A stretch of 60,714 bases of DNA from Candidatus Staskawiczbacteria bacterium RIFCSPHIGHO2_02_FULL_43_16. GTDB taxonomy: Bacteria > Patescibacteriota > Minisyncoccia > Minisyncoccales > Staskawiczbacteraceae. Positions 17,070 through 60,714 of the stretch are shown here, one piece after another; position 1 is the stretch's first letter; each line of letters opens with the position of its first letter. The position numbers were made by a program, and so were the translations under genes. The notes beneath the pieces are model-generated. The model saw only the letters and a list, made by a program, of their open reading frames with translations, made no database searches and was not told where the DNA came from. Where the stretch lies: positions 54,070 to 114,783 of the forward strand of contig MHOU01000012.1 in the NCBI GenBank assembly GCA_001821935.1, in the 5' to 3' direction.

Positions 17070-19022
17070 CTAAAGTTGGCCGGGCGATCCGCCCACGTCA
17101 ATACTGGCTTGCCAATTATCGGCGCTACTTCCCAATAAGAGTGTGTCTTTACGCTGCATAGTTTGCTTGGTCGTGTTGTTGCCCGCAAACCAACCGGTAC
17201 TACAGTCCACTTCATCAACCACATTTCCTTGAGCACCGTAAAGATACAAATATTCCCCGGCATTTGCCAGGGCGCCCGTATATAATTGGTCTGCGACAAC
17301 ATCGGGCACAGAATCATCATCCGTCCTTTCCAGCAAATAAAATCCCTGCGCTTCAATGGAACCCGAAAGCTCAATAAGCGGCGCGCCATCGGCCGCTTGC
17401 AATTTCCAGCCCGAAAGGCTGACTGCCTGGCTACCCGGATTAAAAAGTTCTATCCATTCTTTATTGACCGAAACCACGCTTCCCATCCAGGCAATTTCAT
17501 TAATAACAATGGCCAACTGCGATTCGGGCGAATCCTGGGAACCGGGCGGGTCAGCAGACGGGTCAGCCGGATAATCTGCGGGCAAATCTTCTGACGCGAG
17601 AGTTTTAGGGGCGATGACCTCATCAACCAACGCACCATTGGCATCGTATAATAAAATCACATTGGTGTCAGCAATAGAAAAACTACTGCCCGAATACCTC
17701 AAATCAGGCAGCGCAGAACCGGTGTAATTTTCTGTTCCGTCATCATTAGCTTGGGGCGCTATCAGAAAATATCCACCAGAACCAATACTTCCCGTAAAAG
17801 CGGCCGAAGAAACTAAATTACTTTCCGTACCACCGGCGGTTTTCTTTTTTAAAGCAAAACCTTGCAAATTCACCGCCACATCGTTGGGATTATACAAAGT
17901 AATAAATTCGTCTTTTACAGTTTGCCCCTCAGTTTGGACTTCATGAATCAACACTTTTTTAAACAAATATTCCTGCGCCGCCGGAGGCGGCGCAGGTGCC
18001 TCGGGCATAAGTGTTCGCTCGGGCTCCCTTATATACGCCACATTTTTTGCCCGAGGCGTTGGCTGGCCAATCTCAAAATCGGATTGGTTGTTATTAGTAT
18101 CCTGGAGCTCGCCCGAAACCATTCTTCGGCTGATGCTCTGACCTTCGGCGGGGTTAGTGGCGGCCAATAATTCATAATCGCCGGCATCTCCAAATCCCAC
18201 TTTATCAGAAATTTCCCCGGCCGGATTTTTAAGAGCCAGCGTGTTATCTTCGGTCAACGGATTATCTATAAAAATACCAGCCACAAAACCCGCCTCTTCT
18301 CGCGCAATCAAAAAATACCCATGGGCGGGTATCTTTTTACCGGAAAATAACGCAGCTGAGGCAAATGTAGAAAAGCTGGTAGCATTTTTGGTTTTGCGCT
18401 GTAAATACCATCCATCCAAACTAACTTCCACACCTTCCGTATTATATAATTCCACAAATTCCTGTTTTGAGTCGGCCAGTCCGCCAATCTGCACCTCTGA
18501 AATTAAAATTTTAGGATAGGTAACGCTGATTTGGCTGGTGGCAGTAACATGTACGGGATTATCCTGCGGAACCACCGTAATCGGGGCAACTGGTTTTGGG
18601 GGTGGTTGCGAAGCCAAAACATTTTCATTGGCCGGTTCAATGACCTTAGGCTCAAGATACTCCAGATCCCGAATTTGCCCCTGCAAAACATCAATTTTTT
18701 TCACAATATCATCTCTTTGGGCTTGGGCGGGGCTGTCTTGGGTACTTTTAGGCGCAAATGTCAAAGCAACTTCTTGGGCATCTGCATTTCTCACAGCCGC
18801 CGGTTCATTTTCTTGCGGTGGTGTTTCAAAAAAAGTAGGAATGTCCGTTTTGTTTGCCGGCTGCCCATTAAAAGAGCTCAGGCTCGCCATAAACGCCTTT
18901 GAACCCAAGGCCGCGCCAAAAATAATCTCTTTTTCAAAAAAGAAAATAGCAGACAGCGCCAAAAAAATTGCTACTGCCAAAAAAACTTTTCTCATATCTT
19001 GTTCTTTTATTGTACAATTCAT
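17070..19022 (-). CDS. Secreted protein with three lamin-tail-domain (LTD) repeats
   Basis: N-terminal TM/signal segment. Three repeats of the LTD pattern: ILISEVQIGG...EFVELYNTEGVEVSLDGWYLQRK, VLIHEVQTEG...EFITLYNPNDVAVNLQGFALKKK and IVINEIAWMG...EWIELFNPGSQAVSLSGWKLQ. Confidence 0.8.
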   Translation of the reverse strand: MNCTIKEQDMRKVFLAVAIFLALSAIFFFEKEIIFGAALGSKAFMASLSSFNGQPANKTDIPTFFETPPQENEPAAVRNADAQEVALTFAPKSTQDSPAQAQRDDIVKKIDVLQGQIRDLEYLEPKVIEPANENVLASQPPPKPVAPITVVPQDNPVHVTATSQISVTYPKILISEVQIGGLADSKQEFVELYNTEGVEVSLDGWYLQRKTKNATSFSTFASAALFSGKKIPAHGYFLIAREEAGFVAGIFIDNPLTEDNTLALKNPAGEISDKVGFGDAGDYELLAATNPAEGQSISRRMVSGELQDTNNNQSDFEIGQPTPRAKNVAYIREPERTLMPEAPAPPPAAQEYLFKKVLIHEVQTEGQTVKDEFITLYNPNDVAVNLQGFALKKKTAGGTESNLVSSAAFTGSIGSGGYFLIAPQANDDGTENYTGSALPDLRYSGSSFSIADTNVILLYDANGALVDEVIAPKTLASEDLPADYPADPSADPPGSQDSPESQLAIVINEIAWMGSVVSVNKEWIELFNPGSQAVSLSGWKLQAADGAPLIELSGSIEAQGFYLLERTDDDSVPDVVADQLYTGALANAGEYLYLYGAQGNVVDEVDCSTGWFAGNNTTKQTMQRKDTLLLGSSADNWQASIDVGGSPGQL

Positions 19023-19065: not shown

Positions 19066-22002
19066 TTAATAACTCCACCCAAATCCCCCTTTGTTGGTTG
19101 AAATTTTGATCATTTTTAAACCGCTGAATGTTTCGTAAATTCGACCCGAGGAATCTTTACCAACAACCATGGTGGTTTTACCGTTAAAGATTGTCTGGAT
19201 ATGAAAGTCATCTTTAAAGATTATTTGCTGAACCAGGGTTGATAGTTCCCCATTTTTATCCGCCATCCAGGCATGCACCATCATGTTACTGCCAATGTCA
19301 GCGAGCGCGCCATTGTAGGTAAGCAAATCAATGCGCGCCGTTCTGGTTATTTTCCGGTTTTTATTTTTTAAGGTTATTTGCGTTACATTGCCGGCTTGGT
19401 CAGCCAGGGTTATGACATTATCATTGTCAACCACAACGGCGCCGGGGTCATTTTGGGCCGAAAATTTCAAGTCTTTGCCCACCGGGTCAAATTCAATTAC
19501 CGCCTCCGGCGCGGTTTTATCAATGGTAAAATTTAGGGTTTGTTGTTGTTTATTATTGCCCGCATTATCGGTGGCAAAAAAAGTAATAATATGTTCACCT
19601 GCGGTGGTGAAGGTAAGCGCGGCCGCGGCGGCGGCCGCGCTTTGCCACGCCCCGCCATCAATCTTGTAATGCAATGCCAACACGCCTGAATTTTCGTCAG
19701 TGGCATTGATCTCAACACTTACATCGCTTCTATAAAATCCTTCTTGGCCCGCGATTCCGGAAAGGGTAGCAACAGAAACCGGTGGCAACACATCTAAGGC
19801 CGCGTCGCCAACCACAATCGCCGAAGGCAAAATAGTTTCGGGCGCGCTTTCTGAATTTTCTTGTACGGTCAGTGTTGTTTGCCCGCCACCCAAATTAACC
19901 GTGCCCGTCAAATCCGCCGTCACCGGCAAATTTGAAAATATGTCAGCGCCCACCACCTGCCCGTCAACAATATCCTGGCTGCCAATGGTATACGTCCCCT
20001 CACCCGTCCCCTGTATGCTAATATCATACACCTGCCCACCATCCGTGGGTAGATACAAAAACTTATGTTTACCCATGATTTCAAACGCGGCATTGGGAAT
20101 TTCATTAAAAATACTGCCATCTTGTGCCAAACCTAATTTATTGCCGTCTTGGTCTGTGGCAAAAATATCAATCGGGCTAAACACGGAAATGGCCTTGCCA
20201 TTTAACTTACACTCATCAATATTTTGAGTAATAATATTGCCATCAACACCCAGACTGCTGCCCGCCAATAAGTTAACAATCTGCTGGCGAGTGCCATCTT
20301 GACTCATCATTTTACTATGTTCCCCCTTTAGGGCATAAAACTTTTTAGCAGTATCAATGGGCAAATTGGTGGCGCTTTCCAAGGGAACCGTGCCATCACC
20401 CGGTATAAATTTGGGCGTTTTATAATCAACCAGATTCTGGCCAAAAATACTTTTCTGGCGGTTTTCTATAATCGTGCCAATGGTCCCCGCCTTGCAACCG
20501 TCTATGGCATACAGATCCACTCCGGCAGTTCGCATATCAAAATCATCAAAGGCCTGGGTATGCAAACTTCCGGCATTGGTTAAGCCCTGCGCGTTTAAGC
20601 CATGGTCATTGGTTATAAAGTTTCCAAACTGGCTGTAATTTAAATTGGTTTCGGTAGTATCAAGCAAATTTAATAAATCACCCTGGTCAATCACTTTCAC
20701 AAAACTGCCCTTGACATCATAATATTTTTGACTTGGGAGCAAGTCATACGCCGCGGGCAAATTAGCTGAAATTTTTTTCATTTCGGCATCATTAAGCCCA
20801 AGTACCCCAAAATTATCACCTTGCAATAATACTTTTACCGATTTAGGAGCCCCGGTACTTGGCACACCCACAAAGATAGACTTGCCAATGTGATGACTTG
20901 CTATATTATCAACCACATATTTTTTTACAATCAACCCACCCATACTATGGGCAATAACATCAACTTTGTCCGCGCCAGTTTGTACTAAAATATCCGCAAC
21001 TTTTTGCTCCAACAAATCAACATTTGTTTTTCCATCAAGATACTTCCCCGTCACCCCATATCGCCAGTCATAGGGAAAAGTAAATAAGTTTTGGTTTTCT
21101 ACATAGCCATGGGATTCGAATTCATTAATCAATTCTTGTGAGTAATCGAAAAGGTTTGAAGGATTCTTAATAATATCAGCCCCAAAAACATTGGCATTAG
21201 AAGGTATTAAATCTTTACTAAACGCAAGTGGATCCATAAAGCTATCTGCATCCAGGGGATTAACCATTCTAATAATATCCGCCCACAGTAATTCATTGCC
21301 ATTCTTCATTTCCGTTCCCATTAGTCCTGGCACAATCAAAGCCGGAGTTTTTGAGTTATTCGTAATGGGATCTTGTATGTCGTCATAGTAAACATGTGAA
21401 GTTGCGCCGCCAACATTTCGATACAACGTGATACGGTGCAGGCCCGAAGCCCAAGGACTTATAGGAGAAACCCAAGGCGTAAAATCGCCCTCATTAAAAC
21501 GATAACGAACCTTTTTATCAGAATCACGCCATTCGATAACCATTGAATACCATGTGTCTGCATTAAAACTTCCCATGATGATGTTTTGGCTAGAGTTATT
21601 CCTATAATGAACAGTATGGGCGCCAATATTAAAAATCACCTCAACCTTTACTGAAGAATTTTCCAACAACCTAAACCCACTATAAGGCGCACCTTCATCG
21701 GCTCTAAAATAGTACTTAATCCTACCCGTTGGGACTAAAACACCATTCTTATGAATACCAACAGCAATTTGGGGGAAATTACCACTACTTTTCAGTGCCC
21801 TTGATCCCTCTTTCACAATCGAAGATTGTATCGTAAAAAGCTCTTCTGACCCGAAACCCATCCAGCCCCCCTGTCCATGTGCGTTGCCATTAACATAAGA
21901 ATTGAAATCATCGGTGAATATGGTCGCCGCACTACTAACATTCGCAAGCCCTAAGGAGAGAAATATTGCTATACTATATAGAAATATAGTTTTGTTTTTC
22001 AT
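19066..22002 (-). CDS. Large secreted alpha/beta-hydrolase (LCAT/lipase-like) with N-terminal lectin-like and C-terminal Ig-like domains
   Basis: Signal peptide MKNKTIFLYSIAIFLSLGLANVSSA. Nucleophile elbow VIAHSMGGLIV (GxSxG). PALIVPGLMGTEM resembles LCAT-family proteins. Confidence 0.65.
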   Translation of the reverse strand: MKNKTIFLYSIAIFLSLGLANVSSAATIFTDDFNSYVNGNAHGQGGWMGFGSEELFTIQSSIVKEGSRALKSSGNFPQIAVGIHKNGVLVPTGRIKYYFRADEGAPYSGFRLLENSSVKVEVIFNIGAHTVHYRNNSSQNIIMGSFNADTWYSMVIEWRDSDKKVRYRFNEGDFTPWVSPISPWASGLHRITLYRNVGGATSHVYYDDIQDPITNNSKTPALIVPGLMGTEMKNGNELLWADIIRMVNPLDADSFMDPLAFSKDLIPSNANVFGADIIKNPSNLFDYSQELINEFESHGYVENQNLFTFPYDWRYGVTGKYLDGKTNVDLLEQKVADILVQTGADKVDVIAHSMGGLIVKKYVVDNIASHHIGKSIFVGVPSTGAPKSVKVLLQGDNFGVLGLNDAEMKKISANLPAAYDLLPSQKYYDVKGSFVKVIDQGDLLNLLDTTETNLNYSQFGNFITNDHGLNAQGLTNAGSLHTQAFDDFDMRTAGVDLYAIDGCKAGTIGTIIENRQKSIFGQNLVDYKTPKFIPGDGTVPLESATNLPIDTAKKFYALKGEHSKMMSQDGTRQQIVNLLAGSSLGVDGNIITQNIDECKLNGKAISVFSPIDIFATDQDGNKLGLAQDGSIFNEIPNAAFEIMGKHKFLYLPTDGGQVYDISIQGTGEGTYTIGSQDIVDGQVVGADIFSNLPVTADLTGTVNLGGGQTTLTVQENSESAPETILPSAIVVGDAALDVLPPVSVATLSGIAGQEGFYRSDVSVEINATDENSGVLALHYKIDGGAWQSAAAAAAALTFTTAGEHIITFFATDNAGNNKQQQTLNFTIDKTAPEAVIEFDPVGKDLKFSAQNDPGAVVVDNDNVITLADQAGNVTQITLKNKNRKITRTARIDLLTYNGALADIGSNMMVHAWMADKNGELSTLVQQIIFKDDFHIQTIFNGKTTMVVGKDSSGRIYETFSGLKMIKISTNKGGFGWSY

Positions 22003-22755: not shown

Positions 22756-24315
22756 ATGTCAACAAACTTAACTCCCAAACAAAAACAGATATTAGAATAT
22801 ATAAAAAAACGTATTACAAAGAATGGCTATGCTCCCTCTCTTGGGGAAATAGGGACGAGATTCAAGCTAGTAAAATCAACAATACATCAGCACGTTGATT
22901 CCTTGATAGAAAAAAAATACTTAAACAAATCAGATTATCGGGCGAGATCATTAGAAATCCCCGAAGATAAAAATGTAACTTTTGTAGAAATCCCGCTCTT
23001 AGGCACGATAACAGCGGGCAAACCGATTGAAGCAATCGAAGTTTTAGGAGAAACCATTTCTATTCCAAGCAATGGGGTAGGGAGAATAAAAGACTATTAT
23101 GCATTGAGAGTATCTGGCGACAGCATGATTGACGAAGGAATTTTTGATGGAGATATAGTGGTCCTGAAGAAGCAATCCGTTGCTGAAAATGGGCAAACTG
23201 TGGTTGCTATAATTGATGACAATTCAGCAACTCTTAAAAAAATCTACAAAGAAGAAAGCCGATTCAGGCTACAACCAGCTAATCAAACGATGCTTCCTAT
23301 TTATAGAAGAGAGGTTGAAGTGCGCGGTGTGGTGATAAAAATCATAAGAGATCTTGAAGGTCAAACTAAAAAACAATTTTCAACTTTAGACTTATTTGCT
23401 GGAATAGGCGGATTAAGGCTGGGTTTCGAAAAAGCTGGCTTTAAAACTGTTTTTTCAAATGATTTTGACAAGCAATGCAAGATAACCTATGATTTGAATT
23501 TCAAAGATTCTAAGTTGATAGTAGAAGATATAAACAAAATAGAAATTAATGATCTCCCGGAATTTAGCTTCCTATTAGGAGGCTTCCCCTGCCAGGCTTT
23601 TTCAATAGCTGGATACAGAAAAGGATTTAGAGATGAAAAGGGAAGGGGGAATTTATTCTTCAGACTGGCAAAAATAATAGATGAACGGGAACCAGAGGGA
23701 TTTTTGCTTGAAAATGTTAAAAATTTGAAAACTCACGATAACGGAAAAACTTTTGGAATTATTAAAAAAACCCTCAAAAATCTTGGCTATCACGTAAAGG
23801 CAGAAGTGCTCAATAGTATGGAGTATGGCAATATCCCCCAAAATAGAGAGCGCATCTATATCGTCGGTTTCAAAAATAAAGATCACTACGAAAAATTTAG
23901 GTTCCCCGAACCTGTTGAGCTGACAACTAAAATCACTGATTTGCTTGAAAGTGAAGTTCCAGAAAAATACTATTACAATAAGAAGCCTCTATTCAATAAG
24001 CTTAAGGACTTCATTAAAGAAAGAGGAAAAGTATATCAGTGGCGCAGGAGGTATGTAAGAGAAAATAAGAAAAATGTCTGCCCTACTTTAACGGCAAACA
24101 TGGGAACAGGAGGCCATAATGTGCCGATTATCAAAGATAAAAATGGCATCAGGAAACTAACTCCTTTCGAGTGTGCGCGCATACAAGGATTTCCAGTTGA
24201 TTATAAATTACCCAAAATAGCAGATTCTGCTCTATACAAGCAATTCGGTAATTCGGTAAGCGTGCCAGTTATTGAAGCTATAGCAAAAAATATTAAAACA
24301 GCAATTACATCCTAA
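22756..24315 (+). CDS. Fusion protein: full LexA-like repressor (wHTH + S24 autopeptidase) joined to a DNA (cytosine-5) methyltransferase
   Basis: Residues 1-205 form the LexA part: LTPKQKQILEYIKK...GYAPSLGEIG, cleavage-site-like ITAGKP (A87-G88), GDSM (S123) and ATLKK (K161). Residues from about 208 to 519 form the MTase part: DLFAGIGG (motif I), GGFPCQAFS (IV), ENVKNL (VI), QNRERIYIVG (VIII), RKLTPFECARIQGFP (IX) and QFGNSVSVPV (X). Confidence 0.85.
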   Translation: MSTNLTPKQKQILEYIKKRITKNGYAPSLGEIGTRFKLVKSTIHQHVDSLIEKKYLNKSDYRARSLEIPEDKNVTFVEIPLLGTITAGKPIEAIEVLGETISIPSNGVGRIKDYYALRVSGDSMIDEGIFDGDIVVLKKQSVAENGQTVVAIIDDNSATLKKIYKEESRFRLQPANQTMLPIYRREVEVRGVVIKIIRDLEGQTKKQFSTLDLFAGIGGLRLGFEKAGFKTVFSNDFDKQCKITYDLNFKDSKLIVEDINKIEINDLPEFSFLLGGFPCQAFSIAGYRKGFRDEKGRGNLFFRLAKIIDEREPEGFLLENVKNLKTHDNGKTFGIIKKTLKNLGYHVKAEVLNSMEYGNIPQNRERIYIVGFKNKDHYEKFRFPEPVELTTKITDLLESEVPEKYYYNKKPLFNKLKDFIKERGKVYQWRRRYVRENKKNVCPTLTANMGTGGHNVPIIKDKNGIRKLTPFECARIQGFPVDYKLPKIADSALYKQFGNSVSVPVIEAIAKNIKTAITS

Positions 24316-28101: not shown

Positions 28102-28129
28102 CCCCATCACCAGATGGGGTTCTTTTTTT
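28102..28129 (+). terminator. Plus-strand-oriented intrinsic-terminator-like hairpin overlapping the RT1 stop codon
   Basis: ccccatc-acca-gatgggg followed by ttcttttttt on the plus strand. No annotated plus-strand gene lies upstream. Confidence 0.4.
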
Positions 28130-29180
28130 AGAAAAAGTGCTCGCCCAACGCCTCAATGACTTTTTCTCCTAAGCTGCAAGAATCGCAGTGCTTTAACATT
28201 CCATAATATGATTGCAGAGTTTGGTGAAACGAAGATGCTGATATTTTTTCTTCTTTAAAATCGGCTATTTTGGCGTTTAATTTCCTAAACATCCGATGGC
28301 CGGTTTTCACGCGCAACATTTTATGGTGCGGAAAGCTTACATAACCCAAAAAATCAATCCCCTGGTGATATTTTCTGATTTCAATTTTATTGGGATGCAA
28401 AGATAGTTTTAAATTATCCCGTAAAAACGTATCAATCTTTGGAATTAATTCCTTCAGATATGCCACGTTCTCCGACAAAATAACTAAATCATCACAGTAT
28501 CTGATGTAGTACTTTATTTTTAGAGTACGTTTTATAAACTGGTCCAATTCGTTTAAGTAAATATTGGCAAAAATCTGGCTGGTAACATTGCCCAAGGGAA
28601 GCCCCTTGGCAAAACTACTGATAATCTCTTGCAGCAGCCAAAGGACATTTTTGTCACCTATCCGTTTTTTAATCAAATCCATCAAAATATCCTGGTCAAT
28701 GGAATCAAAAAACTTTTTGATATCGCATTTTAAGACAAAGCAATTGCGCGTGTTATTTTTACCAGCTTTATTGGCAAATGCACTAAGCCGGTTGACTGCC
28801 CGATGGGTTCCTTTTTCATCTCTGGATGAGTAAGAATCAAAAATAAAAGATTTGTCAAAAATAAGATATAGCTTTACAAATATCGCGTGGTGCAAAACCC
28901 GGTCTCTTACGGTTGCTTTGTTAATGGCGCGCAGTTTCGGGTCTTTGACGTAAAATGATTCATAGGGCGCGTGGTGATAGATTTTCTTTTTTAATTCTTC
29001 ATGAAGGGCGCGAATTGCTCTTGCATGCTCTTTTTCAAAGAGTATAACATCAAGCTTTTTGGCTTTCCCTTGTTTAAAATAATCCCACGCTGAAAGCAAA
29101 TTTTTAAGCGAAATTATTTCACTGAAAAGATCAAGGCTTTTAACCCCCCCCCCAATCAGTTTTTGGTTTTGAGTATCCAT
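28128..29180 (-). CDS. DGR reverse transcriptase (RT1)
   Basis: RT motifs CDIKKFFDSID, LPLGNVTSQIFANIYLNELD (the SQ signature of DGR RTs) and YIRYCDDLVIL (YxDD). A TR lies directly upstream with a matching VR. Confidence 0.9.
   Translation of the reverse strand: MDTQNQKLIGGGVKSLDLFSEIISLKNLLSAWDYFKQGKAKKLDVILFEKEHARAIRALHEELKKKIYHHAPYESFYVKDPKLRAINKATVRDRVLHHAIFVKLYLIFDKSFIFDSYSSRDEKGTHRAVNRLSAFANKAGKNNTRNCFVLKCDIKKFFDSIDQDILMDLIKKRIGDKNVLWLLQEIISSFAKGLPLGNVTSQIFANIYLNELDQFIKRTLKIKYYIRYCDDLVILSENVAYLKELIPKIDTFLRDNLKLSLHPNKIEIRKYHQGIDFLGYVSFPHHKMLRVKTGHRMFRKLNAKIADFKEEKISASSFHQTLQSYYGMLKHCDSCSLGEKVIEALGEHFF
29144..29153 (-). repeat. G10 homopolymer in codons 10-13 of RT1 (in frame, encodes GGG)
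   Basis: There are 10 consecutive C on the plus strand. The minus strand reads att ggg ggg ggg gtt. Confidence 0.9.
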
Positions 29181-29198
29181 GTTTTTAGTGCGCTATTG

Positions 29199-29228
29199 CC
29201 GCCAGGCGCAACCAAGCGCCTGGCGGCG
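29199..29228 (-). promoter_or_regulatory. GC-rich 12-bp hairpin in the TR1-RT1 spacer
   Basis: gccgccaggcgc-aaccaa-gcgcctggcggc lies between the TR 3' end (29246) and the RT start (29180). Confidence 0.6.
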
Positions 29229-29245: not shown

Positions 29246-29360
29246 CTTCGGAACGGGCGCGCCAGTTATCATTGCGATTGTCGGGATTGGCGTAGTTGAC
29301 GTTGAACTCGTTGCCGTTGAGATTGGTGTTAGGAACATTGCCGTCGGAGTACCGGGAGCC
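29246..29360 (-). repeat. DGR-1 template repeat (TR1)
   Basis: 115-nt gap-free alignment to 29652-29766. By my count all 24 mismatches are at T on the plus strand, which is A on the minus strand, in the TR. The minus-strand frame is rich in AAC/AAT codons (SRYSDGNVPNTNLNGNEFNVNYANPDNRNDNWRARSE). Confidence 0.9.
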
Positions 29361-29598
29361 CGTTATATTATCTAATTTTATCCGTATCACCGGCAGTTCA
29401 AAAATGTGAATGCCTGGGTTATCTGTGTCCGTCGCACAGGAGTCTTCCGAGCCCGAAGATGCTCGAGAAAATTAGACAAGCAGTTTCCTGTGGCCGGCGA
29501 GGGAAACCAGCCACGGATGCAGTATGGCAAAAAAACAGCGCGAATTCAAGATGGCTTGAAAGCCAATCTTAAACTCGCGCCTTAATTGCTCGTCCTCA

Positions 29599-29634: not shown

Positions 29635-30432
29635 TCACGACGAGGAAAGCTCTGCGGAACGGGCGCGCCAGCCACCACCGCGACCGACGGGACTGGCGCA
29701 GCCGACGCAGAACTCGCGGCCGTGGAGATAGGCGTCAGGAACACCGCCGCCGGAGTACCGGGAGGCGGGACATAGAGTGTAGTTTTTCACATCCAAGTGA
29801 TTGCCACTCTCATCCCAGCACTTCAACTCGTGAAGTATTCTCTCAATGATGCCCTCAGTCGAAAGCTTGTTGTCCCAGAAATGCCGGGCTGGGAGGTTTT
29901 TGTTCTCCTCGTCGGCTTCCACCCGGTCCCGAACCAAAAGGGCGTACGTACCGTTTTGCGGGTGGCGGTCGTGGTTGGGAATGGCCGCATCCAGATTATT
30001 GGCGTATCGCCAACACTTGAAGTTGGCTTCGCAAACGCTGTACAGCCAATTAAGCGGCTGGACCCTGGATTTGGCATTACCCGTTTTCCACGGCTCCGCC
30101 AATTCCCGCGGGACGATGATCAGGCGGTCAAACCCCTCCTTATGCTGAGGAATTTTGACGCCACCCAAGTCCAGCTTGAAACCGAAATACTTCTTGAAAA
30201 AGTCCTCCTGTTCCTGGAGTTGGCGGTCAAAGGGCGTAAATGCCATGGCCACCACCTGGACTTTAGCTGGCGGCGCTTGGACAATGGCCGACCGTTCAGT
30301 GGGCGCCAGCTCGCCACGAACAAATTGCTCCAGACTCTCAAGAGAGATTTTCTTTTCGCGCATCTTCTTGAGCAGATCCATTTGCAAACCAGCCAATTTG
30401 GCCGCGTCTGCGTCGATGAAGGTGTTCATCAT
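29635..30432 (-). CDS. DGR-1 target (variable) protein
   Basis: 265 aa from the ATG at 30432, which is preceded by AGGAGA. The VR occupies the last 40 or so codons. No signal peptide is recognisable. G+C is visibly higher than in neighbouring genes. Confidence 0.8.
   Translation of the reverse strand: MMNTFIDADAAKLAGLQMDLLKKMREKKISLESLEQFVRGELAPTERSAIVQAPPAKVQVVAMAFTPFDRQLQEQEDFFKKYFGFKLDLGGVKIPQHKEGFDRLIIVPRELAEPWKTGNAKSRVQPLNWLYSVCEANFKCWRYANNLDAAIPNHDRHPQNGTYALLVRDRVEADEENKNLPARHFWDNKLSTEGIIERILHELKCWDESGNHLDVKNYTLCPASRYSGGGVPDAYLHGREFCVGCASPVGRGGGWRARSAELSSS
29652..29766 (-). repeat. DGR-1 variable repeat (VR1) at the C-terminus of the target gene
   Basis: Counterpart of TR1. Encodes SRYSGGGVPDAYLHGREFCVGCASPVGRGGGWRARSA. 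The shared GC-rich 3' end tggcgcgcccgttccg is IMH-like. Confidence 0.9.
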
Positions 30433-30466
30433 TTTCTCCTGAATCAAAAACATAGACCGCCGAATT

Positions 30467-37580: not shown

Positions 37581-38597
37581 TCAATCACCAGCACCAAAAA
37601 GTCCTCTTGATTCATTCCATATTTCTGGCTTATTCTGTGTTTCTTTCAGCCAATACCACCACTCTCCCCCCCAAAGATAGTATTGCTCAATTCCCGTGCG
37701 TTTCGCGAACGCAATGTTTAACTTGAACTGCTCAAAATTCATTGATTTTTCTTGCTCCTCCAGGGGGACATTATAAAAAACTTCCGAATTCCAGGGCTCT
37801 GCCTGGTATTCTACCACTATTACCTTCTTACCGGACAAGGCCTCTGCAATACGAGCCTTGATTCCATAAAAATTTGGTGGGTAAGGATACGTCAAATAAA
37901 AACCAAAATCATCTGTCACATGGACCCATACTTTCCGGTACATGGTAATGCCAAGAATGTCACCAATCTTAGTGGCATCAACCCATAAAGATTGATCTCC
38001 GGTATCGGAAACAATGACCGGACGCGAAGGGTCAAGCTGTTTTATCAATGCCACCTCTTTTTTTAAAAATTCTTTGTCGTACCAGGGGCATTTACCAAAA
38101 TGAAATAAGGGTTCGTTTTCCGCCTGCCAGGCGATAATAGCAGGGCTATCTTTATATCTTTGAACCACCCGGGTGATATATTCCAATAACACATCCTGCT
38201 GGTCTTGCTTGGAAATGGTATCGGCCCACGAAGGAACATGACATTCGGGCCAGCGACCGGTTTTCATGCCCACCACGTAAATGATTTTGGCATTGTGGAT
38301 TTCCGCCTGGCGCACCTGCCAGTCAATATCGTTAAAATAATAATCTCCTCTCTGCCCCTCAACCCAATCCCACTGAGTAAGTAGCTTGATATTTTTAACG
38401 CCCAAATCTTCCAAAATGGCTAAATACACCTTTCTCCAGTCAAGCTTTAAGTTCTCCGCTTGCATTTGGGAAAAATTCACCCCCCAGGTAATATTTCTTT
38501 GCGGGAACCTGTAGACGAAAACCCCATACAGAGCAATAAAACAAACGGTAATAAAAATACATAACCATACCTTAATTTTTATTTTTGACTTTTTCAT
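37581..38597 (-). CDS. Membrane-anchored glycoside hydrolase, clan GH-A (GH5-like)
   Basis: N-terminal TM anchor. WQAENEP contains the NEP acid/base motif. A later EYQAEPW is a candidate nucleophile region. Confidence 0.5.
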   Translation of the reverse strand: MKKSKIKIKVWLCIFITVCFIALYGVFVYRFPQRNITWGVNFSQMQAENLKLDWRKVYLAILEDLGVKNIKLLTQWDWVEGQRGDYYFNDIDWQVRQAEIHNAKIIYVVGMKTGRWPECHVPSWADTISKQDQQDVLLEYITRVVQRYKDSPAIIAWQAENEPLFHFGKCPWYDKEFLKKEVALIKQLDPSRPVIVSDTGDQSLWVDATKIGDILGITMYRKVWVHVTDDFGFYLTYPYPPNFYGIKARIAEALSGKKVIVVEYQAEPWNSEVFYNVPLEEQEKSMNFEQFKLNIAFAKRTGIEQYYLWGGEWWYWLKETQNKPEIWNESRGLFGAGD

Positions 38598-44330: not shown

Positions 44331-44876
44331 TTAAGTTTCTTCGTATTGGGCGAGGCGGTTGATCGGCTCTTCGAGGTCGTCGCCAGTGTCATCACTTAAG
44401 CGATACTCCATTAAGAAGGCATCTTCTCCGCTGTCTTCGTAGAAAGCACGCAGTACCCGGACGGCCCGAAACTCCTGCTTGCAAAAGAACAGCTGCGCCG
44501 CTAGGTTGGTCTCGCGAACCTCCAGGGTGATGCGGGTGCGGCGATGGCCGGACAGCTTGCTGATCATCTTCGCGACCATCTGCGCTCCCACGCCCATGCG
44601 CCGCCAAGCCGGATGGACCACGAAATTAAGGAAATGCAGTTTTCTTTTATGCAGTTCGTAGATCATGAAGCCGACAACCTTTTCGCCGTACTCCGCGACC
44701 ATACTAATGCAGTTGCGCTGGCGCATACAACACAGAAGATCCTCTTCACACCAAGGATGCTCAAAACTGAGCTGCTCGGCTTGCAAAACTTCCGGGTAAT
44801 CACGTCGAATCATCCAGCGAATGTGCACCCGAACCTGTTCCTTTAAGCCCCCCCCCTCATGACGCAGAGCTTCCAT
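44331..44876 (-). CDS. GNAT-family N-acetyltransferase (RimI-like), GC-rich and SD-led
   Basis: Acetyl-CoA motif VHPAWRRMGVGAQMV. GGGAGG lies 6 nt upstream of the ATG. A G9 run lies at codons 8-10. Confidence 0.8.
   Translation of the reverse strand: MEALRHEGGGLKEQVRVHIRWMIRRDYPEVLQAEQLSFEHPWCEEDLLCCMRQRNCISMVAEYGEKVVGFMIYELHKRKLHFLNFVVHPAWRRMGVGAQMVAKMISKLSGHRRTRITLEVRETNLAAQLFFCKQEFRAVRVLRAFYEDSGEDAFLMEYRLSDDTGDDLEEPINRLAQYEET
44848..44856 (-). repeat. G9 homopolymer near the 5' end of the GNAT gene
   Basis: There are 9 consecutive C on the plus strand. The minus strand reads gag ggg ggg ggc tta aag. Confidence 0.9.
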
Positions 44877-44969
44877 GAGAAACCTCCCATTGTAAGTGTG
44901 CGATCCTGTAAATTTGCCTTACTTGAATATACACCTATTAAAAATTTTGTAAATGGGGTTTGAAAAATT

Positions 44970-58638: not shown

Positions 58639-59674
58639 CTATTTCCATGGCTTATCAATCCCAAAGCCGGCAATAAGCTCAAGAAGTTCCTGCTTCACTA
58701 AAAATGCATTACAATGCTTGAGTATGCCAAAGTATGATAGTAACGTTGCATCAAGAGACTCTTTTTTAATTAATCCACTGCGAAAATCAATTAACCAGGA
58801 TTTTACCCTTTTAAACATCCTCTTTTTCGTTTTTACCCTTAAAACAGTAAAATAAGGAAAACTGACATAGCCTAAAAAATCTATCCCTTGGTGATACTTA
58901 GAAATCGTCACCTTATTGGGATGAAGTGACATTTTCAAACGGGTTCTCAAAAAAATATTTATCCTTTGGATCAAATCTTCCAAATACTTTTTGTCTTCGG
59001 ACAAAATAACAAAATCATCGCAATAACGGATATAATACTTTACGCGCAACGTATGCTTTATAAAACCATCAAGTTCCGCGAGGTAAATATTGGCAAATAA
59101 TTGGCTCGTAATATTTCCCAAGGGCAAACCTGCCGAAAAACTTTTAGTGATCACTTCTATGAGCCATAAAGATTGCTCATCTTTTACTCGTTTCTTGATA
59201 AGGTTTAATAAAATAGCCTGGTCAACATTGTCGAAAAACTTTTTAATATCACATTTTAAAACAAAACAATTCTTGGTATTGTTGTTACTTTCTTTCTGGA
59301 AAAATTCATGCAAACGGCGCACAGCCCGGTGCGTACCCTTGCCAATCCTACAAGAATATGAGTCATAAATAAACGTCTTATCAAAAATAGGGTACAATTT
59401 CCTAAATAACGCATGATGAACCACCCGGTCACGCACACAAGCTTTGTTTATTTTCCGCAGCTTGGGATCCTTAACATAAAACGTCTCGTAACCGCCATGA
59501 GAGTATGTTTTACTTTGAAGTTCTTTTTGGATAAAGTTTAAATTATTCTTTAAATTCTTTTTGAATGCAATAACATCCGGTTTTTTAGTTTTGTCCAGCT
59601 CAAATTCCGCCCAGGCATTTTTAATATTTTCCCAACTAGTAAGCCCCCCCCCCCATTTGTTTCAAAATTTTCAT
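58639..59674 (-). pseudogene. DGR reverse transcriptase RT2, frame broken by a G11 homopolymer (intact if the run were G10)
   Basis: RT body 58639-59436: CDIKKFFDNVD, LPLGNITSQLFANIYLAELD and YIRYCDDFVIL. The upstream 59437-59643 continues the same frame (LTSWENIKNAW...FYVKDPKLRKINKAC). The ATG at 59674 is in the +1 frame relative to it, across the 11-G run. Confidence 0.8.
59644..59654 (-). repeat. G11 homopolymer at codons 7-11 of RT2
   Basis: There are 11 consecutive C on the plus strand. Confidence 0.9.
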
Positions 59675-59717: not shown

Positions 59718-59725
59718 ATGTGGAG

Positions 59726-59840
59726 ACTTCGGGACGGACACGGGCATTCGGATTGGCATAGTTGGGATTGTCGTTGTTGACATGGACCCTGCCCGGATTG
59801 GCGTCGAAGTAAGCGACGTTGCCATTGCGAAAGCGCGAGC
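59726..59840 (-). repeat. DGR-2 template repeat (TR2)
   Basis: 115-nt gap-free alignment to 60391-60505 with 15 mismatches by my count. Fourteen are at minus-strand adenines of the TR. The frame encodes SRFRNGNVAYFDANPGRVHVNNDNPNYANPNARVRPE. Confidence 0.9.
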
Positions 59841-59904: not shown

Positions 59905-60173
59905 GGAGTGCGAAACGGAATTGGCATTGTTTTAGAAACCAAAAAATGAGATGATTTTCAGGCGCGGCGAGGAGGCATAGCCTTGTGCTACGCCGACAAA
60001 GCCGCAACGCAGAAATCAGCCATTTTTTGGTTTCCCTCGGGGCGAGCGAATTAAGGCAAGCTTCTTCGTTGCTCATCGAAAACGATGCGCAGAGGCATCG
60101 ATTTCTTCTTCGCGCCTTGAATCTTGCCCTAATTCGCTACCGCTAAAACAATGCCAATTCCGTTTCGCACTCC
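59905..60173 (+). mobile_element. Nested-palindrome (MITE-like) element, copy E2, inserted in the DGR-2 VR-TR spacer
   Basis: A perfect 31-nt inverted repeat (59905-59935 / 60143-60173) encloses hairpins aaaccaaaaaatg...cattttttggttt and agcgaattaaggcaag...cttgccctaattcgct. The paralogous DGR-1 spacer is continuous across this point. Confidence 0.6.
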
Positions 60174-60308
60174 TCACTCTGTCCGTAGCAGAGAAGTTTT
60201 TTGAGTCTTTGATACTCATTATAATTATGCAAGCAGTTTCCTGTGGCAAACCATTTCTTGCTTATTGGGAAAACTATTTACCACGTCAGTATGTTACATA
60301 AAAAAAGA

Positions 60309-60353: not shown

Positions 60354-60714
60354 TTACGCCTTCGCTCCGCTCGGCTCCAGTTGGCGGGAAACTGCGGGAC
60401 GGACACGGGCAAACGGATAGGCATAGTCGGGACCGTCGCCGTTGACAAGGACCCCGCCCGGATTGGCGTCGAAGACAGCGACGTAGCCATAGCGAAAGCG
60501 CGAGCGGGTCCGGGTCAACTTCTCGAGGTTCAAGAGCTGTTTCTTGCCGGTGGCAAGATAGACTCCCAAATCAAGAAGCAAGCCGTCGCGCAGGATGGGG
60601 TCGTTGTAGCCTTCCACCCCATCCTGGAATTTCTTCCATCGCTGGTTGGCAGACTCGTTGCTCGGCTCACCGGTCAACGACCGGGTAAAGCCGAGCAGAT
60701 ACGGGCCTTCTTCT
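60354..60714 (-). CDS. DGR-2 target (variable) protein, 5'-truncated by the window edge
   Basis: The open frame runs to the window end. VR2 lies near the C-terminus. GC-rich like the DGR-1 target. Confidence 0.75.
   Translation of the reverse strand, partial: EEGPYLLGFTRSLTGEPSNESANQRWKKFQDGVEGYNDPILRDGLLLDLGVYLATGKKQLLNLEKLTRTRSRFRYGYVAVFDANPGGVLVNGDGPDYAYPFARVRPAVSRQLEPSGAKA
60391..60505 (-). repeat. DGR-2 variable repeat (VR2)
   Basis: Counterpart of TR2. Encodes SRFRYGYVAVFDANPGGVLVNGDGPDYAYPFARVRPA. Confidence 0.9.

Follow-up and report, generated by a model that had tools for sequence, protein, structure and literature searches.

In a 60,714-nucleotide (nt) stretch of contig MHOU01000012.1 (positions 54,070 to 114,783, forward strand; assembly GCA_001821935.1) from Candidatus Staskawiczbacteria bacterium RIFCSPHIGHO2_02_FULL_43_16, a member of the Patescibacteriota, two reverse transcriptase (RT) genes of diversity-generating retroelements (DGRs) each carry an uninterrupted run of ten or eleven G within their first codons. 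This whole stretch is called the window in the following. Many related RT genes carry such a homopolymer in the same 5' coding leader, its length differs between relatives in a way that breaks the reading frame, and the genes behind out-of-frame tracts are otherwise intact. The most likely function of the tract is in our opinion a stochastic ON/OFF switching of RT translation by slipped-strand mispairing, a reading that we hold with moderate confidence.

The first of the two genes, RT1, is organized as follows.

29144..29153, minus strand: G10 homopolymer in codons 10-13 of RT1 (C10 on the plus strand, CCCCCCCCCC), with A at both flanks
28128..29180, minus strand: RT1, an intact DGR-type reverse transcriptase of 350 amino acids (aa) with an RVT_1 match (E = 7.7e-24) and the motifs LGNVTSQ and YCDD
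29154..29180, minus strand: N-terminal leader MDTQNQKLI of RT1, nine codons 5' of the tract, holding the sole start codon able to feed the RT frame

RT1 combines the RVT_1 domain with the motif-4 signature LGxxxSQ, which is specific for DGRs. Its 5' end reads ATG GAT ACT CAA AAC CAA AAA CTG ATT GGG GGG GGG GTT with GGG as residues 10-12, and both sequence and translation agree with the initial annotation, which had described an intact gene with an in-frame G10. RT1 is therefore in the ON state, and it is G10 in all three assemblies compared (the two others being L084 and L171).

Runs of this kind are rare in the window, which has a G+C content of 43.5% and just four G/C runs of 7 nt or longer, each of them G on the minus strand. 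They are given here as read on the plus strand.

29144-29153: C10
59644-59654: C11
44848-44856: C9
37666-37672: C7

Under a model of independent and identically distributed bases the window would be expected to hold about 0.03 runs if the minimum length is set at 10 nt and about 0.13 if it is set at 9 nt. All three runs of at least 9 nt fall within the first 13 codons of minus-strand genes, namely RT1, its paralogue RT2 and a GNAT gene that is described below. As GGG accounts for only 20% of the glycine codons in the window, the chance of three GGG codons in a Gly3 linker is about 0.008 per locus, and such a linker is therefore not homopolymeric by chance.

The tract of the second gene is one G longer.

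59644..59654, minus strand: G11 homopolymer in the RT2 leader, one G in excess, resulting in the OFF state with a stop at codon 13
58639..59673, minus strand: RT2 gene, frameshifted at the tract only; repair to G10 gives 344 aa with an RVT_1 match

RT2 starts with ATG AAA ATT TTG AAA CAA ATG-G11-CTTACTAG (CTT ACT AG), and dropping one G restores an intact RT; the database gene call for RT2 is truncated to 265 aa. The initial annotation had also placed the tract at the same position in both genes. This holds in so far as both tracts lie in the non-conserved leader 5' of the first conserved motif, but they occupy nt 28-37 of the coding sequence in RT1 and nt 21-31 in RT2, and, with the conserved N-terminal RT motif taken as reference, the tract of RT1 is located about 8-9 residues further upstream. 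The two genes are indeed only moderately similar, with 66% nt identity across the alignable core.

Different alleles of RT2 could be compared. It is G11 in five independent assemblies, and since the same lengths recur across independent assemblies (five for RT2, three for RT1) a random assembly error is unlikely. A syntenic ortholog (L081-83), which like RT2 precedes glyA and topA, carries G10 in frame; it is 86% identical over the tract and RT region and 82% identical over a longer syntenic stretch, and the codons flanking its tract have diverged. A much closer allele was found in the 90% cluster of the truncated RT2 call: protein P0401 from the Rifle run SRR3989338 is 344 aa long, starts with MKILKQMGGGLTSWEN and is identical to the G10-repaired RT2 of the window in 341 of 344 positions. 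Contig L172, whose DNA is 99.9% identical to the window, has G11 and encodes P0397, which shares two of the three C-terminal substitutions of P0401. The pair of P0401 and L172/P0397 would thus be the nearest thing to direct evidence for a length change within essentially one allele. The consensus sequences of both DGRs are 100% identical across assemblies, so the diversity of their variable repeats (VRs) is uninformative on ON versus OFF.

To survey related loci we used DNA from 80 species-representative genomes, 80 metagenome contigs and the same-population contigs, which together gave 161 evaluable Patescibacteria DGR loci. Homologs of RT1 number in the thousands, and 58 of the best 120 have a GGG or GGGG peptide among residues 1-40, which is always found a few positions ahead of the conserved motif IISLENLF; many of the remaining best 120 are N-terminally truncated calls. 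At the DNA level a true G homopolymer of 7-12 nt occupies the leader site in 67 of the 161 loci (61 non-redundant). G10 is found in 29 of these 67 loci, G9 in 21, G11 in 9, G8 and G7 in 3 each and G12 in 2, and the run is usually longer than nine bases, reaching into the flanking codons. It is present in more than 60 species-level lineages that come from many studies. The first 80 loci (species representatives) comprise 491 kb with 30 G/C runs of at least 8 nt, of which 26 are the leader tract, so that the tract is a 5' coding homopolymer over-represented relative to composition, as in contingency loci. Both the claim that the tract itself is maintained and the proposal that homologous RT genes should be enriched in such runs are supported by these numbers; other genes in the flanks almost never carry such runs.

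The 94 loci without a tract belong to a separate N-terminal type ('MKIYKNIFEKIIS...'; 'MKIYKN...'), a leaderless sister clade that also possesses a divergent avd gene. Among viral DGR RT loci the tract was found in one of 80. A few leader-type loci (L007, L108, L135 and L258) have an interrupted or collapsed tract, the pattern that would be expected of a locked switch. As a separate observation, G11 also occurs at 2617-2627 of L048, directly after the template repeat (TR) of a tractless-type DGR, where the opposite strand encodes the C-terminal tail of an Avd-like open reading frame (ORF). Runs of this kind are associated with DGRs at this second position as well.

The frame in which the tract leaves the RT varies widely. 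Among the 61 non-redundant tract loci the RT is in frame with an upstream ATG in 16 and only with GTG or TTG in 14, and in 31 there is no in-frame upstream start at all. In 28 of these 31 OFF loci the RT frame is open for at least 300 codons past the tract, with a median of 340 codons, equal to that of the ON loci, and is therefore incompatible with decaying pseudogenes in A+T-rich genomes. With duplicates kept (67 loci), no change is required for the RT to be in frame in 18, one G would have to be added in 15 and one removed in 30, and 4 loci are without an upstream ATG. Relatives thus differ by frame-changing tract lengths in ORFs that are otherwise intact (RT1 itself was seen as G10 only), and on this comparison the claim that the tract is prone to slippage is supported. 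Among nearest relatives (53-86% aa identity) the tract length agrees in 16 cases with 17 expected and the ON/OFF state in 33 with 28.5 expected, so that they match in either respect no more often than by chance. Two RT proteins annotated as truncated, P0008 (with 71% identity to RT1) and P0097, are OFF alleles: 67-109 nt 5' of the called start each has a G10 or G11 that is out of frame, and at both loci the RT frame is open from the tract onward.

Between the tract and the conserved motif no in-frame start is present in RT1, RT2 or their relatives. Translation from a start downstream of the tract is thereby ruled out, and the same holds for the poly-G as a Shine-Dalgarno-like element serving such a start. 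We also observed that the tracts are usually followed by (C)TTAA(A/T) (29139-29143 in the window; also L001, L008, L039 and L090), which is read in the RT frame as L, I or V followed by K or N. In a tract that is one G too long it places a TAA stop within 1-2 codons, and the OFF product is then a peptide of about 12 aa.

As judged from the sequences, the anatomy is that of a simple-repeat contingency locus, with starts only upstream, single-G length differences and broken genes that stay intact. The homopolymer would gain or lose a G by slipped-strand mispairing during replication, and because the sole usable start lies upstream of the tract each single-G change would shift the RT domain into or out of frame. 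RT1 with G10 would currently be ON and RT2 with G11 OFF, one G loss away from ON. RT synthesis would then be gated in a stochastic, heritable and reversible manner, and with it the adenine-directed hypermutation of the target VR, so that a lineage could keep a useful variant while diversification continues in a few of its cells. That the length changes come from replication slippage at a high rate, that they can revert within a population and that selection acts on the switching is our inference.

A second explanation is that the G run is a recoding site acting as a constitutive attenuator, with RNA polymerase slippage, which would give transcripts with a G more or a G less than the DNA, or ribosomal frameshifting on GGG, so that a tract of any length would yield little full-length RT. 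IS (insertion sequence) transposases and other mobile-element enzymes are throttled by recoding, and several of our observations would fit a similar role here. The near-random frame states of the 61 loci look as if the DNA frame hardly mattered, but programmed frameshifts keep one fixed relationship, and all three occur among the 67 loci. A frameshift site would also be expected to have a conserved stimulatory RNA structure, and at the tract RNAalifold gave 0 consensus pairs over 39 loci, with single-sequence folds that disagree with each other; Rfam likewise had nothing at the tract, its sole match in the window being a tRNA elsewhere. The intactness of the OFF genes, with their median of 340 codons, and the stability of RT2 as G11 across same-population assemblies can be understood if the frame is corrected during expression, but alleles in frame are frequent and there are locked variants whose tract is interrupted. 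In addition, documented cases of bacterial transcriptional slippage concern, to our knowledge, A/T runs. We therefore consider recoding unlikely, though a serious candidate.

The cassettes around the two RT genes have to be introduced before a further explanation can be weighed.

29198..29227, minus strand: hairpin with a perfect 12-bp stem, in the interval between TR1 and the RT1 start
29246..29358, minus strand: template repeat TR1, a 113-nt match to VR1 with 24 of 24 mismatches at TR adenines
29652..29764, minus strand: variable repeat VR1, in the 3'-terminal part of the target gene
29635..30453, minus strand: DGR1 target gene, 272 aa, without Pfam match
59722..59840, minus strand: template repeat TR2, with 14 of 16 mismatches to VR2 at TR adenines
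60387..60505, minus strand: variable repeat VR2, whose target gene extends past the window end

With adenine-specific differences between TR and VR, and with the VR of RT1 at the 3' end of ORF 29635..30453, the RT1 and RT2 cassettes are bona fide DGRs. A strong hairpin is located between TR and RT in both of them. No bAvd-like ORF was found beside RT1 or RT2; Avd is an accessory to DGRs and not universal. The window is chromosomal and also contains ftsZ, ftsA, hisS, topA, mfd, clpB, glyA and envelope polysaccharide genes. The best named hits of its TopA, at 74-76% identity, agree with a Staskawiczbacteria/Parcubacteria-like member of the Patescibacteria. Two further observations concern the interval between VR and TR. 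An identical 17-nt motif, CCACAGGAAACTGCTTG, is present there once per DGR (29477-29493 and 60230-60246, minus strand), with a chance expectation of 0.02 matches. The VR2-TR2 interval also contains a perfect 31-nt inverted repeat (59905-59935 / 60143-60173) with two more inverted repeats nested inside, and this region (59905-60173) may be a large structured element or an insertion.

In relatives of the window cassettes the surroundings of the tract are different. A divergent bAvd gene (PF22296; E = 2.5e-16 in L098) is present in 50 of the 61 tract loci. Its start is separated from the tract by 6-69 nt, and by 8-25 nt in 47 of these loci. In these loci the RT leader overlaps the N-terminus of avd in antisense (dual coding, e.g. 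L098 1163-1522), and the tract is a poly-C upstream of the avd start. A conserved leader peptide ('M-x-Q-R'), which had been taken as a sign of leader translation, was withdrawn: its apparent conservation arises because the leader is antisense to the avd N-terminus in avd-type loci, R/G/W being NGG opposite a proline CCN codon. It might also be that tract length influences the expression of avd.

This arrangement suggests a third explanation, in which poly-G/poly-C is needed in cis as DNA or RNA, either within a TR-spacer RNA that is bound or primed by the RT or as a promoter spacer or 5' untranslated region of the divergent avd, the break in the frame being a side effect. The closeness of the avd start in 50 loci would agree with the latter, but the tract is also found in 11 loci without a divergent avd, both window RTs among them, and 88 of the 94 loci in the leaderless sister clade have the divergent avd although this clade lacks the tract. 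As the tract occurs without avd and is absent from the leaderless avd clade, it is not an avd feature, and a requirement of the tract for a divergent avd is ruled out by this sister clade, in which genes are arranged in the same way without a tract. The common denominator of the tract loci is the 5' coding leader of the RT. A role in a spacer RNA could be seen in the window, where TR and tract are 68-93 nt apart, with the tract downstream and thus inside a possible spacer RNA, and in the unrelated locus L048 with its G11 beside TR and avd 3' end; the distance from TR to tract, however, varies from about 70-90 nt as in the window to about 390 nt in avd-type loci, and no covarying or conserved structure includes the tract. 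A cis-acting element also fails to account for out-of-frame lengths that are not purged. We regard this explanation as improbable.

That the tract has no function, being a sequencing or assembly artefact, a neutral relic in paralogues or the trace of a Gly-Gly-Gly linker in the protein, is hardly credible: homopolymers are error-prone in sequencing, L001 probably stems from long-read data and the GGG peptide is kept in 58 of the best 120 homologs, but equal lengths recur in independent assemblies, the tract spans more than 60 species-level lineages from many studies, a Gly3 linker would mix its codons, the run commonly exceeds nine bases into the flanking codons, and hardly any run of at least 10 nt is expected in the window by composition.

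Several points weigh against the switching of RT translation by slippage. An ON fraction near one third is also the outcome of full indifference to frame and fits recoding equally well. The assemblies of the same population are concordant, with RT1 as G10 and RT2 as G11; no length variant of RT1 was seen, and strain-level DNA polymorphism was absent, every near-identical contig pair being equal in tract length. P0401 is a predicted protein only, with no DNA record behind it, and its frame may have been the choice of an assembler at the homopolymer. Finally, flanking genes with a tract are nearly absent in the approximately 0.5 Mb around related RTs. The RT tracts therefore do not belong to a genome-wide phase-variable set of the Campylobacter or Neisseria type.

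The window has one more tract in a 5' coding position.

44848..44856, minus strand: G9 homopolymer covering codons 7-10 in the GNAT/RimI-like gene 44331..44876

It is followed by CTTAAAGG, the same 8 nt as after several RT tracts, and ATGs in two different frames are located upstream of it (window 44331-44889). The 119 closest homologs (72-84% identity) begin with 'MSTGRTEKEQARVHIRWM...', and none of them has GGG or a tract at that position, so that the tract is a lineage-specific acquisition in a translated N-terminus. The few named homologs come from Planctomycetes or Gemmataceae metagenome-assembled genomes, and with such homologs for a gene in a Patescibacteria window a horizontal transfer is possible. 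The GNAT tract hints that this lineage tends to evolve 5' G tracts, yet the other genes in the RT flanks mentioned above are almost free of them. The remaining run, G7 at 37666-37672 on the minus strand, lies in the 3' part of a glycoside-hydrolase-like ORF (37581..38597) and is probably ordinary.

Two further observations concern other genes of the window. On the plus strand, 22756-24315 encodes a 519-aa ORF in which a LexA DNA-binding domain is joined to a Peptidase_S24 self-cleavage domain and to a complete C-5 cytosine DNA methyltransferase domain, an unusual architecture that is also conserved in assembly L171. Adjacent to each other on the minus strand are two large ORFs (17070-19022 and 19066-22002) with lamin-tail domains (three LTD repeats) and an LCAT/lipase-like domain, which may be surface or host-interaction proteins.

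Homopolymeric contingency loci are described from Neisseria, Haemophilus, Campylobacter and Helicobacter, as for the poly-G of gonococcal lgt (PMC2192423) and the Campylobacter phasome (PMC6321876). The DGR RT tract resembles them as a G run of 8-12 nt in the first codons that differs in length between close relatives, with OFF alleles that are otherwise intact and with ON and OFF mixed among genomes. In contrast to these loci, the gated gene here would be the RT of a hypermutation cassette and not a gene for a surface structure or restriction-modification, the hosts are free-living or episymbiotic groundwater Patescibacteria and not host-adapted pathogens, and the tract is nearly exclusive to one gene family in the sampled flanks. 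Phasevarions, in which mod methyltransferase genes are phase-variable (PMC5149525, PMC3230613), are similar in that a simple repeat would switch an enzyme with wide downstream consequences; the effect here would be on the supply of mutations at one target gene and not an epigenetic control of many.

As in other DGRs, such as the Bordetella phage BPP-1 type and those of the Candidate Phyla Radiation (CPR), the RT1 and RT2 cassettes consist of a target gene with a 3' VR followed by TR and RT, the differences between TR and VR are adenine-specific, and most relatives carry bAvd. They differ from them as the window cassettes have no recognisable avd and as the avd of the relatives is divergent and overlaps the RT leader. 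Slippage or frameshifting in IS transposases shares with our loci a 5' homopolymer in the gene of a mobile-element enzyme that limits the full-length product, but it uses one fixed frame relationship, A/T-rich motifs and often a structure, whereas here three relationships and no conserved structure were found. The class of mechanism is well known, and the novelty lies in the gene that would be gated, an RT of a DGR, in the phylum and in the conservation across the clade. In the literature searched we came across neither a DGR RT gated by a homopolymer nor a case of poly-G phase variation from Patescibacteria; the key CPR DGR survey of 2017 was outside this search and a prior mention is possible.

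Gene callers shorten or miss these RTs, as seen for P0008, P0097 and the 265-aa call of RT2. Surveys in which an intact RT is required therefore under-count the DGRs of the CPR and mislabel OFF alleles as decayed. A wider proposal, whose chances we regard as even, is that the whole clade of Patescibacteria DGRs is under a stochastic poly-G switch of the RT, with one hypermutation device (simple-repeat slippage) gating another (retro-mutagenesis). About half of the natural populations would then be OFF, and many of the 'truncated' or 'pseudogene' RTs of the CPR would be reversible OFF alleles.

A useful binding protein that is diversified without restraint should come at a cost. If our reading of the tract as a switch is true, a reversible and heritable poly-G gate would be a form of bet-hedging in which most cells keep their current VR and few explore new ones. 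Phase variation by simple repeats, as in host-adapted pathogens, would then also occur in environmental ultra-small bacteria.

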